From NCBI GenBank assembly GCA_017468925.1, contig JAFUHI010000016.1, positions 15,769 through 79,768 on the forward strand: a stretch of 64,000 nucleotides of DNA, given 5' to 3'. Positions 58,271 through 63,820 of this stretch are shown piece by piece. Numbering within the stretch: the first letter of the stretch is position 1; every line of letters starts with the position of its first letter. The translations under genes were made by a program, and so were the position numbers. Source of the stretch: Bacilli bacterium. Lineage in GTDB: Bacteria; Bacillota_I; Bacilli_A; RFN20; CAG-826. The notes below the pieces were generated by a model, which worked only from the letters and a program-made list of their open reading frames with translations, was not told where the DNA came from and ran no database searches.

Positions 58271-58332
58271 ATGCATACACCCCAGCCATTTTGCATACAG
58301 CGAGGTGAATTTGCATACACCCCTTAAGTTTT
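58271..58332. repeat. 20-bp-phased direct repeats, locus B (core TGCATACACCCC)
   Basis: TGCATACACCCC at 58273, TGCATACAGCGA at 58293 and TGCATACACCCC at 58313. They lie immediately 3' of the ToxN-like ORF and about 250 bp upstream of 56757..58022. Confidence 0.75.
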
Positions 58333-58344
58333 AAAGAAAAATAG

Positions 58345-58761
58345 TTAAATTAATTTATTATCAATTAAATATTTCTCTATTTCCTTGAATGGTAAAATTG
58401 CGTCATACACCTTAGCATTTTCCTCACTTCTCAAAAACGCCTCATTGTTTTTGAAATTGTATAACTGTTTTGCTTTCTTGGTGATTTTTCCTTGATTTTC
58501 ACTAACCCATTTAAATTCATCGGAAACAATATCTTTGTATGCAGAATCAGGTTCGTTTTCAATTGAATAACCTTCAACATATTTCATTGGAATTGGAATC
58601 ATGTTAATCAATTTAATTGTGCCTAATAGTACGCGAATTCCATTTTCACCATCTTTAGTCATGTAGATGGAGAATATGGAATTCTTCTTAATTGATCCAT
58701 CTGTTTTTAAATCTTTTATTTTCGGAGAGGAAAATGGAGCATAGTAGTTAAAATTTCCCAC
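58345..58761 (-). CDS. ToxN/AbiQ-family type III toxin-like endoribonuclease (N-terminus apparently truncated or frameshifted)
   Basis: YYAPFSSPK, GTIKLINMIPIP and YKDIVSDEFKWVSENQGKITKKAKQLYN parallel ToxN YLAPLTSPK, INLKFMIPI and YKRMLYKQLQFIRANSDKIASKSDTL. The frame stays open upstream of the GTG to 58851 (..FFYENRFHRSHTRKYVGVIFTV..) with no in-frame ATG. Confidence 0.6.
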   Translation of the reverse strand: MGNFNYYAPFSSPKIKDLKTDGSIKKNSIFSIYMTKDGENGIRVLLGTIKLINMIPIPMKYVEGYSIENEPDSAYKDIVSDEFKWVSENQGKITKKAKQLYNFKNNEAFLRSEENAKVYDAILPFKEIEKYLIDNKLI

Positions 58762-58810
58762 AGTGAAAATAACACCAACATATTTTCTTGTATGAGAGCG
58801 ATGAAAACGA

Positions 58811-58886
58811 TTCTCATAAAAAAATGCTCCATTATGGCGGAGCGCACCTAGTCATAAAGCTCCTGCATTTACGGCTGAGGGTCACC
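58811..58886 (-). ncRNA. Two degenerate 38-nt tandem repeats in the ToxN-like leader (candidate ToxI-like antitoxin RNA)
   Basis: Minus strand U1 (58886-58849) is GGTGACCCTCAGCCGTAAATGCAGGAGCTTTATGACTA. U2 (58848-58811) is GGTGCGCTCCGCCATAATGGAGCATTTTTTTATGAGAA. About 27 positions align once small gaps are allowed. Confidence 0.4.
58818..58843 (-). terminator. Hairpin plus U7 between leader repeats and ToxN-like coding region
   Basis: Minus strand: GCTCC-gccataat-GGAGC-A-TTTTTTT. The upstream GGAGC in U1 could form an alternative pairing with the same GCTCC. Confidence 0.4.
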
Positions 58887-58907
58887 GGCTTATTTCTAAG
58901 CATCTAT

Positions 58908-58937
58908 ATTATCACTTGTGGCCACAGGCTATGTCAA
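58908..58937 (-). promoter_or_regulatory. Sigma-70-type promoter for the ToxN-like locus
   Basis: Minus strand: TTGACA, 18-nt spacer, GATAAT (also readable as an extended TGATAATAT). Confidence 0.5.
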
Positions 58938-59016
58938 AAAGAATATCTTTGATATTAGAAGGATTTATTAGTAAAAAGTAAGGTCTTAACTTATCTTTCG
59001 AATCTTATTTTATATT

Positions 59017-63503: not shown

Positions 63504-63820
63504 ACCACAGGCGCTATGAACTAGCTAATAGCAAAGTCGACCATACGCAGGCACACTGTGGTAAATGAGTATGTGGGCTATCACACTACGTGTTAGGGTG
63601 TGGTGATAGGGAAAGTATTGCCCAGTAGTGATATGAGTCCTAAGGGAGGAGGTCGTAGGTAAAAGACGTCCTTAGGCACGAGAAGATCATCGCGCTCCCT
63701 ACAGTTATTTCATTTAATAATTGAGCATGTGGCCATCACAAGGATGATGTAACACCAGTAGTTACGGGACTTAGTCGATAACTACAAAAGGTGTTTTCAT
63801 TATGGTGATGGCTTTTATTA
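63504..63820 (+). ncRNA. Candidate structured RNA or 5' leader of unknown class
   Basis: No ORF on either strand. Perfect stems are ACCACAG/CTGTGGT (63504/63556), CTATCAC/GTGATAG (63578/63603) and CCTAAGG/CCTTAGG (63639/63670). A three-tier hairpin follows: GCCATCAC/GTGATGGC (63732/63805) enclosing AACACC/GGTGTT and GTAGTTA/TAACTAC. TTTTATTAT comes after it. Confidence 0.4.

Follow-up and report, generated by a model that had tools for sequence, protein, structure and literature searches.

A ToxN/AbiQ-family toxin pseudogene behind a compact two-part, ToxI-like leader in an uncultured gut bacterium

Introduction

Type III toxin-antitoxin loci have been defined, and searched for, by means of tandem repeat arrays (PMC3401426, PMC5086642, PMC8860590). 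The window (the whole stretch of DNA that was analysed, 64,000 nucleotides) contains a ToxN-like reading frame on the minus strand, in the region 58345-58937, that has an abnormal N terminus and lies behind a leader with two short, diverged repeat-like units. The question raised by this locus is whether the toxin gene is functional, switched or dead, and what kind of RNA precedes it. A preliminary description had named three possible readings, namely a new repeat family, a toxin switched by a T-tract and a pseudogene. The host is an uncultured low-GC gut bacterium, for which the nearest MAGs carry the labels Erysipelotrichaceae and Bacilli.

Results

The gene belongs to the ToxN/AbiQ family

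It was found that the gene is a member of the ToxN/AbiQ family, as had been proposed from its sequence blocks. Searched with its upstream in-frame extension, the window frame matched Pfam ToxN_toxin (PF13958) with 89.4 bits (E 3.6e-25), relative to a curated cut-off of 25 bits, and the 138-aa ORF beginning with GTG (58761-58345, minus strand) matched with 68 bits without the extension. The PADLOC AbiQ model gave 64 bits for the GTG ORF and 103 bits for an intact orthologue, P0001. A sequence search of the PDB with the window frame returned the ToxN and AbiQ chains 7D8O, 2XD0, 4ATO and 4GLK (E 4e-9 to 7e-5) and none named CptN or TenpN; ToxN_toxin was the sole significant Pfam match, with no other family passing its cut-off at E <= 1.

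An AlphaFold model of P0001 (pLDDT 89.7) contained the ToxN fold, a twisted antiparallel beta core with helices around it, as evaluated by Foldseek, and the best four matches were 4ATO, 2XD0, 7D8O and 4GLK (TM 0.65-0.74). Residues K34, S52, S53 and K55 were invariant across 28 clade proteins and are the counterparts of K33, T52, S53 and K55 in the active site of E. coli ToxN (PMC8860590). Phage and plasmid collections contained no DNA similar to the locus, and the protein-level matches in them were at most 37% identical.

The toxin gene is interrupted by a 67-nt deletion

Syntenic contigs encode an intact 179-aa toxin (MRIVQISDDYIELLRNQFPRIMDEKRFHRSH...), whereas no intact, translatable toxin ORF is present in the window. 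The positions of the native start codon, the lesion and its products are as follows:

58815..58817, minus strand: true toxN start codon, the ATG of MRIV... (alignment to intact orthologues)
58806..58809, minus strand: junction of the 67-nt deletion, with CGTT microhomology (alignment to the syntenic intact alleles L001, L002 and L004)
58716..58817, minus strand: reading frame from the native start, out of frame with the toxin, 33 codons (MRIVFIALIQENML...) and then a stop (sequence)
58345..58809, minus strand: toxN remnant, residues 26-179 of the intact 179-aa toxin with the stop codon included, severed from any start (alignment)

In the intact gene, the deleted segment is bounded by two 12-nt near-repeats, ATG[A/C]GAATCGTT and ATGAGAAGCGTT. 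The loss lies directly after codon 4; with residues 5-26 gone and the frame shifted, translation from the native start gives a 33-aa nonsense peptide. The active-site codons are retained in the window, but none is translated from the native start. The window toxin is a pseudogene of the ToxN/AbiQ family, killed by this frameshifting deletion, and of the earlier readings that of a decaying locus was correct for the toxin.

An artefact of assembly or sequencing, with the real gene intact, would also produce a 67-nt gap, and it is in keeping with this reading that the source is probably a metagenome assembly and that intact alleles co-occur in the same project. We consider it highly improbable, because the identical junction, the T7 tract and linked substitutions are found in L167, a contig independently assembled from another sample, and because the near-identical 12-nt direct repeats that flank the deletion are a standard deletion substrate.

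The GTG ORF corresponds to residues 42-179 of the intact toxin, and its 138-codon open frame retains the S-S-P-K active-site motif and the C-terminal helices, so that it might be expressed as a functional, N-terminally shortened toxin. This is very hard to credit: in the structure model, strand b1, helix a1 and strand b2 are missing from the GTG ORF, as are the conserved K34 and G37 (residue roles from PMC8860590); there is no recognisable ribosome-binding site ahead of the GTG; and the toxins of intact relatives are all 177 to 185 aa long.

The preliminary description had instead attributed the odd N terminus to the T-tract. It was right that the homologous extension upstream of the GTG has no in-frame start codon and that a single additional T would bring the ATG of MEHFF (58832) into the toxin frame; the run U UUU UUU is also a slippery heptamer, so that T7 to T8 slippage or a -1 frameshift might turn the toxin on and off. 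The probability of such a switch is close to nil in our judgement. Intact orthologues start at an ATG past the T-run (MRIVQ...), and this ATG is kept in the window, at 58817, downstream of the run. The T-run is T6 in the intact syntenic alleles and T6, T7, T5AT4 or T3CT4 among intact relatives clade-wide, with the frame unaffected. The MEHFF ATG sits in the terminator loop without a ribosome-binding site and is missing in L014, L175 and L088, and the fused product would still be without residues 1-26, including strand b1 and helix a1. The abnormal N terminus is caused by the deletion inside the gene and not by the T-tract.

A promoter and two ToxI-like units precede the toxin gene

The promoter, the GCTTA-GAAA-TAAGC hairpin, the two units and the GCTCC/GGAGC stem with its U7 tract were all recovered on the minus strand where they had been placed originally, and their order (promoter, ToxI-like units, terminator and toxin) is the canonical type III layout:

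58932..58937, minus strand: -35 hexamer TTGACA (sequence; TTGACA or TTTACA equally spaced in clade relatives)
58908..58913, minus strand: -10 hexamer GATAAT (sequence; fixed distance to GCTTAG in relatives)
58888..58901, minus strand: 5'-terminal hairpin P0, GCUUA-GAAA-UAAGC (covariation)
58849..58887, minus strand: unit 1, a ToxI-like H-type pseudoknot, then the U-rich linker AGCUUUAUGACUA (covariation; homology to tandem repeats)
58826..58848, minus strand: unit 2, a second, diverged ToxI-like unit (covariation of the terminator stem; similarity to unit 1)
58827..58830, minus strand: putative toxN ribosome-binding site GGAG, in the 3' arm of the terminator stem (sequence)
58818..58824, minus strand: U7 tract, the terminator tail and the spacer from the ribosome-binding site to the ATG (sequence)

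The promoter has an 18-nt spacer and matches the consensus at 11 of 12 positions, and transcription would start about 7 nt past the -10 hexamer, at the first base of the 5' hairpin. In unit 1, stem 1 is formed by CGGU (58887-58884) and GCCG (58875-58872) with 4 bp, and stem 2 by CCU (58880-58878) and AGG (58864-58862) with 3 bp, the loops of the pseudoknot being 2-3, 2 and 7 nt. Stem 2 of unit 2 is the intrinsic terminator stem (GCUCC 58843-58839 paired with GGAGC 58830-58826), which was flagged as terminator-like; a putative stem 1 of this unit (GGU 58848-58846 with GCC 58838-58836) showed zero covariation. In most clade members, the purine-rich 3' arm is located 7-10 nt ahead of the start codon.

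The leader had been described as two 38-nt tandem repeats, 58887-58850 and 58849-58812, the second of which also carries the toxin ribosome-binding site and has the toxin start codon as its final bases. The similarity of the two was borne out, with 26 of 38 identical positions (68%), three gaps and a z of 4.4, a value reached by 1 of 5000 shuffles and 11 of 25,586 genomic 38-mers; this suggests a resemblance above chance but weak. The designation as tandem repeats fared less well, in that Tandem Repeats Finder reported no repeat in the window, even at score 30, and the unit 1 covariance model failed to recognise unit 2.

The locus was also compared with the criteria that Blower 2012 and Goeders 2016 give for type III loci. 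Directly upstream of the toxin is a Rho-independent terminator (hairpin 58843-58826 and U7), and unit 1 has the two interleaved 3-4 bp stems and short 2a-1b loop of a ToxI-type pseudoknot, its stem and loop spacing fitting the published Group I template (PMC3401426). In place of an array detectable by Tandem Repeats Finder, there are two diverged adjacent units only. The program found no array in the clade loci with lenient 2/3/5 scoring either, and therefore the published type III criteria would miss the clade.

Leader conservation exceeds that of the toxin gene, with covariation for a pseudoknot and hairpins

The leader is conserved more than the toxin gene, being 73-100% identical to that of L001 compared to 61-86% for the coding sequence, with unrelated flanks; it is intact in the window and kept in related gut bacteria. 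The covariation check on homologous loci that had been suggested at the outset supported P0, the unit 1 pseudoknot and the terminator stem. In an alignment that was itself fitted to three of the five helices, 94% of the P0 cells were paired and four of its five pairs had compensatory changes (variants GCUUA/UAAGC, GCC/GGC, ACC/GGU and GCAAG/CUUGC), unit 1 stem 1 was 98-100% paired and had changes from C-G to U-A and from G-C to A-U, the closing pair of unit 1 stem 2 was found as U-A, U-G, C-G and G-C, and the terminator stem was 100% paired with covariation at 5/5 pairs. For the pseudoknot and hairpins together, 91.8% of cells were paired and 13 pairs had double changes in this alignment, and the covariation score was 0.336, relative to 0.185 in shuffles (0/500 of which reached 0.336) and no more than 0.128 in slid controls. 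The leader had an unremarkable folding energy (z -0.66), and no Rfam family matched it, even at E <= 10.

Several other candidates in this region were rejected. A nested minimum-energy fold of unit 1 had zero covariation support. The small ORF ATGACTAGGTGCGCTCCGCCATAA (MTRCAPP) was discarded as a leader peptide because its ATG is missing in L010, L012, L014 and L175, and a plus-strand gene, the 54-aa ORF 58788-58952 that overlaps the leader, because only an RNA from the minus strand accounts for the invariant U-G pairs and the pattern of covariation. The P0 loop GAAAU was rejected as a conserved ToxN cleavage site, its sequence not being conserved across the clade. The leader core pattern was not matched in viral contigs, and therefore there is no evidence for a phage-borne mimic.

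Toxin loss in related lineages

At least five further lineages have different toxin-killing lesions. The leader is retained in L168-171 (1-nt deletion in the toxin), L172 (frameshift), L173/174 (two nonsense codons), L011 (stop codon and frameshift) and L012 (TGA at codon 2). In L013 the 3' end of the toxin is replaced, and this is not a leader-retained case; L015 has a 5'-truncated toxin remnant without a leader.

Unit 1 is homologous to ToxI tandem repeats

ToxN genes that are 30-47% identical to those of the clade carry true 36-39-nt tandem repeats in 2 to 4.5 copies. Unit 1 was found to be homologous to the tandem repeats of L089 (z 7.1), L059 (z 6.5) and L063 (z 4.9). Unit 2 gave a z of 4.2 with a 39-nt Lachnospiraceae repeat and 4.8 with the L067 repeat, and the full-module model placed two L063 repeats on unit 1 and unit 2. 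The ToxI sequence of P. atrosepticum gave a z of 2.3 with unit 1, which is a lead and not evidence. The ToxI form of the units is uncatalogued in the literature compared, leaving aside the Blower 2012 supplementary ToxI tables (e.g., Clostridium sp. HGF2). The idea of a new repeat family was thus sound in that the units are a form of ToxI uncatalogued in that literature, of which unit 1 is homologous to the true repeats of relatives. Bacillales UBA1719 has the complete module, including a promoter and a terminator of its own, downstream of an intact toxN, and in L019 the module occurs twice.

The leader might be a cis-acting 5' UTR only, that is, a transcription attenuator and translation throttle for toxN, with any neutralisation coming from elsewhere. 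The fusion of terminator and ribosome-binding site in unit 2 would suit this role, as would the lack of a visible A-rich cleavage site and the presence of only two diverged units, given that antiQ requires at least 1.8 repeats (PMC5086642). We regard it as unlikely, because unit 1 shares homology with genuine ToxI tandem repeats and forms a ToxI-type pseudoknot, and because the leader is intact in several lineages in which the toxin is already dead. Furthermore, the UBA1719 module stands apart, downstream of toxN, with its own promoter and terminator, and therefore it cannot be a 5' UTR there.

Discussion

Most probably, the locus is a chromosomal ToxIN-family (ToxN/AbiQ) type III module in which the toxin is dead by a 67-nt deletion and the compact two-part leader is untouched. 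The window thus holds a toxin pseudogene in a compact, previously undescribed variant of a known system, with a putative antitoxin RNA. The toxin is a plain deletion pseudogene, neither phase-variable nor frameshift-controlled, and for the window the result is mostly corrective.

For the intact relatives, we infer antitoxin activity, a choice between termination and read-through, occlusion of the ribosome-binding site and possibly RNA processing, as follows. A sigma-70-type promoter would drive an RNA that starts with the 5' hairpin, followed by the ToxI-like pseudoknot of unit 1. Stem 2 of unit 2 would have been lengthened into an intrinsic terminator that also houses the toxN ribosome-binding site. 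Most transcripts would stop at unit 2, giving an antitoxin RNA of about 85 nt in excess, and those that read through would yield toxN mRNA in which the ribosome-binding site is partly sequestered. As in ToxIN and AbiQ, the pseudoknot RNA would bind the ToxN endoribonuclease and hold it inactive. Known ToxN/AbiQ cleavage sites are AA/AU, A/AAAA and A/AAA (PMC5086642). No A-rich run resembling these sites is present in the inter-unit linker; processing, if any, must use another site.

With slightly less than even confidence, we propose that the ToxI array in this clade may have become one antitoxin gene, bipartite and about 85 nt long, that behaves as an autonomous module. Such a gene may consist of a protective 5' hairpin, one inhibitor pseudoknot and a repurposed second repeat, which may serve as terminator, as a mask of the ribosome-binding site and possibly as a second toxin-binding site. 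The module may be placed upstream of toxN (the window clade), downstream of it as one or two promoter-to-terminator copies (UBA1719) or as an orphan that outlives its toxin.

These results describe a ToxI-derived RNA, supported by covariation and invisible to repeat finders, in which the second unit is fused to the terminator and ribosome-binding site, and the same module can also stand alone as a small-RNA gene downstream of the toxin. If the antitoxin is bipartite, type III systems need no repeat arrays, repeat-based surveys systematically miss some ToxN loci, and toxin loss with retention of the antitoxin would be a common fate of such loci. The covariance model is a concrete search tool for missed loci. 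The clade also offers a natural test of the number and identity of the ToxI units that inhibition requires, and the independent toxin-loss events are a set for studying module decay.

Of the known systems, ToxIN (Pectobacterium atrosepticum, E. coli and Bacillus thuringiensis; 2XD0/2XDD, 7D8O and 4ATO) has the toxin family and fold in common with the window clade, the same order of promoter, RNA units, terminator and toxin, and an RNA unit, about 36-38 nt long, that folds into an H-type pseudoknot whose stems have the order and spacing seen in unit 1. Toxin identity is only about 21-23%, however, and the ToxIN antitoxins have 5.5 x 36 nt or 2.9 x 34 nt near-identical repeats, whereas the window has two non-identical units. 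The window also differs in its second unit, which doubles as terminator and ribosome-binding site, in its extra 5' hairpin, in the absence of an A-rich inter-unit cleavage motif and in that its toxin is a pseudogene.

AbiQ of Lactococcus lactis (4GLK) is the best PADLOC model for the window toxin and is likewise from a Firmicute host, and antiQ resembles the window leader as a short array, 2.8 x 35 nt, near the toxin (PMC5086642). In contrast to the window, the antiQ repeats are near-identical, are detectable by Tandem Repeats Finder and have a separate terminator, and AbiQ is about 22% identical to the window-clade toxin, or 28.5% by tblastn to lactococcal plasmids.

Closer relatives are the ToxIN loci of Lachnospiraceae, Treponema and Erysipelotrichaceae (L021-L166, L059, L063 and L089), with toxins 30-47% identical to those of the clade and repeats that recognisably belong to the unit 1 sequence family (compare L089 CGGTGATCCCAGCCATAAGTGAGGAAG with window CGGTGACCCTCAGCCGTAAATGCAGGAG). 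In these loci there are 2-4.5 near-identical copies, and the terminator hairpin and ribosome-binding site are separate elements, whereas the window clade has two specialised units, each present once.

AbiF/RCd22 of Clostridioides difficile is an analogy only; its protein family (Abi_2/AbiD/F) and RNA motif are unrelated to those of the window. According to PMC12373285, an upstream ncRNA neutralises this Abi toxin by binding the protein directly, in cis as well as in trans, and RCd22 is described there as two conserved motif copies, with no long array, a likeness to the window leader.

Layout of the locus and toxin family

The locus (58345-58937) lies on the chromosome, and all the details of the preliminary description were confirmed on the minus strand, namely the promoter, hairpins, two units, U7 and ORF:

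58937-58932 and 58913-58908, minus strand: near-consensus promoter, TTGACA, 18-nt spacer, GATAAT (11/12 consensus matches)
58901-58888, minus strand: 5′ hairpin P0, GCTTA-GAAA-TAAGC, read from the sequence
From 58887 and from 58849, minus strand: two adjoining stretches of ~38 nt, CGGTG... (unit 1) and AGGTG... (unit 2), read from the sequence
58843-58826 and 58824-58818, minus strand: GCTCC/GGAGC hairpin and then T7, flagged as terminator-like
58851 to the stop at 58345, minus strand: open toxin frame, with GTG 58761 as the sole listed start (138 aa)

The proposed type III layout of promoter, repeat-like units, terminator and toxin is borne out by the window sequence. It was found that Pfam ToxN_toxin (PF13958) matched the GTG ORF with 68 bits and the ORF plus its upstream extension with 89 bits (E 3.6e-25), and that the frame is also matched by PADLOC AbiQ. 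These matches agree with the family membership suggested previously, and by homology the frame is that of a ToxN/AbiQ toxin, although its Pfam alignment begins no earlier than profile position 27 of 159.

The abnormal N-terminus of the toxin

The N-terminus is indeed abnormal, as had been described, and the T-run had been proposed as the cause, with a T7/T8 switch giving access to an 'MEHFF' start. The nearest database proteins are 179 aa long, start with MRIVQISDDYIELLRNQFPRIMDEKRFHRSHTRKYVGVIF and are 97% identical, and the contigs encoding them share the gene neighbourhood of the window. In a DNA alignment, the window was nearly identical to the intact allele from the promoter through ATG-AGA-ATC-GTT (MRIV, 58817-58806), after which it lacks 67 nt (CAAATT...GAGAAGCGTT) and picks up again at TTTCATCGC. 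The lost segment is flanked in the intact gene by the 12-nt near-repeats ATG[C/A]GAATCGTT and ATGAGAAGCGTT, offset by exactly 67 nt, and near-repeats at such an offset are a standard substrate for slipped deletion. As a result of the deletion, residues 5-26 are gone and the frame is shifted, with the native start leading into a 33-aa nonsense peptide (58817-58716). The same deletion, T7 and linked substitutions were found in L167, a contig from a different sample, and therefore the deletion is a genuine allele rather than an artefact of assembly.

The T-run is located upstream of the true ATG and varies: the intact allele has T6, and other intact relatives have T7, T5AT4 or T3CT4. The MEHFF ATG, which is not conserved, sits within the terminator loop. 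The T-tract switch is ruled out by the 67-nt deletion and by the position of the true ATG 3′ of the run, which is a terminator tail and also acts as the spacer that separates this ATG from the ribosome-binding site. The pseudogene reading, in contrast to the switch, holds for the toxin: by comparison with syntenic intact alleles, the window holds an ordinary deletion pseudogene.

When the intact protein was modelled with AlphaFold (pLDDT 89.7), residues 3-6 formed strand b1, 8-17 helix a1 and 36-42 strand b2, and the best structural matches of the model were the four solved ToxN/AbiQ proteins (TM 0.65-0.74). Because the GTG ORF begins at residue 42, b1, a1 and b2 are missing from it, as are the conserved residues K34 and G37, the equivalents of E. 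coli ToxN K33 and G37, to which catalytic or fold roles have been assigned (PMC8860590). Judging from the model, it is very unlikely that the 138-aa product would be active.

Toxin loss in related loci

We compared about 20 distinct lineages with toxins at least ~50% identical to that of the window. Intact toxin ORFs of 177-185 aa were present in twelve, and the remainder carry differing lesions.

Toxin lesions in the window and in related loci
Window, L167: 67-nt deletion
L168-L171: 1-nt deletion within the YYAPF codons
L172: frameshift past codon 41
L173, L174: Tyr-to-TAA nonsense changes at two codons
L011: stop at codon 117 and a frameshift further on
L015: 5′ truncation and frameshift
L012 (less certain): TGA at codon 2, rest of the toxin intact
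L013 (less certain): 3′ end of the toxin replaced

The lesions point to recurrent toxin decay in the clade, and the leader was kept in every damaged locus whose 5′ region survives.

The L173 and L174 nonsense codons hit conserved tyrosines (codon 9 and Y74 of the intact orthologue P0001). The L012 TGA, in an otherwise complete 178-codon frame, is either a very recent knockout or read as sense by the host; translation tables 4 and 11 were not discriminated on this short contig.

Conservation and covariation of the leader RNA

Homologous loci were compared, as the preliminary description had advised, and the ~83-nt leader was 73-100% identical to that of L001 (a syntenic contig with the intact 179-aa toxin) across loci with unrelated flanking DNA, whereas the toxin coding sequences of the same loci were only 61-86% identical. 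Covariation was counted in a MAFFT alignment of 19 sequences and recounted after 22 distinct sequences, including four loci absent from model building, had been aligned to the model. Hairpin P0 was 94% paired, with compensatory changes in 4/5 pairs. Stem 1 of unit 1 (CGGU/GCCG) was 98-100% paired and showed both C-G to U-A and G-C to A-U replacements, and the closing pair of stem 2 (CCU/AGG) was seen as U-A, U-G, C-G and G-C; because stem 2 interleaves with stem 1, unit 1 is an H-type pseudoknot. Stem 2 of unit 2, which is the terminator, was 100% paired with 5/5 pairs covarying, and no covariation was seen in the putative stem 1 of unit 2 (GGU/GCC) in the alignments of 19 and 22 sequences. 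For the whole leader, 91.8% of alignment cells were paired, and the covariation score was 0.336, compared to 0.185 ± 0.013 in shuffles (0/500 reached 0.336) and at most 0.128 with slid partners. For the region of unit 1, ViennaRNA favours a nested fold, which was rejected, as comparative support for it was absent.

The elements of unit 1 are ordered and spaced as 1a, 2-3 nt, 2a, 2 nt, 1b, 7 nt, 2b, which agrees with the ToxI template in the literature and with its 'Group I' loop class (PMC3401426). On these comparative grounds, we regard the leader as a structured RNA that is conserved and descends from ToxI repeats. With its toxin dead, the window leader is an orphan; set against the ~3% divergence of the coding sequence, its 0 substitutions in 83 nt relative to the intact allele are not significant as a sign of continued selection.

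Relation to ToxI repeat arrays

When TRF (Tandem Repeats Finder) was applied to the upstream regions of 166 related loci, ordinary 36-39-nt tandem repeats (2-4.5 copies) were found upstream of ToxN genes at 30-47% identity, in Lachnospiraceae, Treponema, Butyrivibrio and one Erysipelotrichaceae MAG. Compared with true repeats, unit 1 of the window gave z values of 7.1 (L089), 6.5 (L059) and 4.9 (L063), and by sequence it clearly belongs to the family of several true tandem repeats. The kinship of unit 2 with ToxI repeats is less clear: it matches unit 1 at 26/38 positions (z 4.4), the common 39-nt Lachnospiraceae repeat (GCTCC-GCC--ATAA-TGGAGCATTTT) with z 4.2 and the L067 repeat with z 4.8. 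In a full-module model (P0, unit 1 and unit 2/terminator), the two true L063 repeats align on unit 1 and unit 2, and the second repeat has its stem 2 placed on the terminator stem.

The simplest course of events would be that an array of two ToxI repeats diverged, in which copy 1 would have remained an inhibitor pseudoknot and copy 2 would have lengthened its stem 2 into a terminator and taken in the ribosome-binding site (GGAG 58830-58827). With regard to the new repeat family offered as one reading in the preliminary description, unit 1 is homologous to ToxI repeats, TRF found zero repeats in the window or in its clade, and unit 2 was not recognised by the unit 1 covariance model. Published type III criteria demand a TRF-detectable array (PMC3401426; PMC5086642; PMC8860590), and therefore loci of this clade would have been discarded in surveys. 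We class the leader as a new and compact form of a known type of antitoxin, one that does not look repetitive; it is moderately interesting for specialists and open to direct tests.

Paired units that differ from each other are met a second time in L017:1887-2038 (uncultured Firmicutes MAG; toxin 45% identical), where a 73-nt period with 2.1 repeats consists of two unlike ToxI-like sub-units, GCGGTGATCCCCTCCATAAGTGGGAGC... and GTTGACCACTACTTCAGTGTGGAGC..., duplicated as a pair. Three more distant loci with toxN at ~40% identity (L016:360-453, L018:1486-1579 and L101:374-468) contain the module with an extra 10-13-nt hairpin, which occupies the long unit 1 loop in L016 and L018 and is placed by the model before stem 1b in L101; it recalls the 12-nt hairpin insertion in ToxI of Clostridium sp. 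HGF2 (PMC3401426).

Stand-alone modules and proposed mechanism

In the Bacillales MAG UBA1719, two intact toxN genes (L019 and L040) lack a module upstream, and complete P0 + unit 1 + unit 2/terminator copies are found downstream of toxN:

L019:3520-3725: two copies in tandem, each with its own TTGCTA-N16-TAATAAT promoter-like box
L040:3532-3611: one copy

These downstream copies argue for a separate small-RNA gene and against a module that serves only as a 5′ UTR. A tRNA-like sequence follows the L019 copies.

The most likely mechanism in intact relatives is that constitutive transcription would begin at about the first base of P0 and that the majority of transcripts would stop at the unit 2 terminator, so that an ~85-nt RNA would be made in excess. 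Transcripts that read through would be toxN mRNAs with a partly masked ribosome-binding site, and the pseudoknot RNA, by analogy with ToxIN and AbiQ, would bind and inactivate the toxin. The RNA might also be processed; the inter-unit linker (AGCUUUAUGACUA) contains a semi-conserved UUUAU and lacks A-rich cut sites such as those of characterised ToxN and AbiQ.

Genomic context and other observations

The window locus is flanked by the following genes:

59520-59017: zinc-ribbon membrane protein
58022-56757, 56764-55826 and 55825-55187: sensor operon of a 7TM sensor, HisKA_3 kinase and LuxR-type response regulator

The same ~750-bp module is found in unrelated neighbourhoods of other genomes, which is consistent with its horizontal movement; a DNA-level search of phage and plasmid collections gave zero copies. 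In L168, L175 and L181, KilA-N, SMEK_N-domain and Schlafen/AlbA_2-HATPase proteins are found next to the module, which suggests that some hosts carry it within mobile or defence-rich parts of the genome. Several contigs with this low-GC Firmicutes-type locus fall in Escherichia coli, Coriobacteriaceae or Odoribacter splanchnicus bins (L010, L009, L076 and others); they are probably binning contaminants, and therefore the organism names on such records are not trustworthy.

Between the toxN stop and the sensor operon (58274-58331, minus strand), a (GG)GGTGTATGCA-like motif occurs three times in the same orientation, ~20 nt apart, with a promoter-like site (58217-58190) downstream of these copies and before the operon. 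The motif is kept in syntenic contigs and may be a response-regulator binding site. Near the window end (63691-63794, plus strand), the COG3943 RNA motif (RF02941) was found with 75.7 bits, compared to a gathering score of 71.8, and is the sole Rfam family found within the 64 kb.
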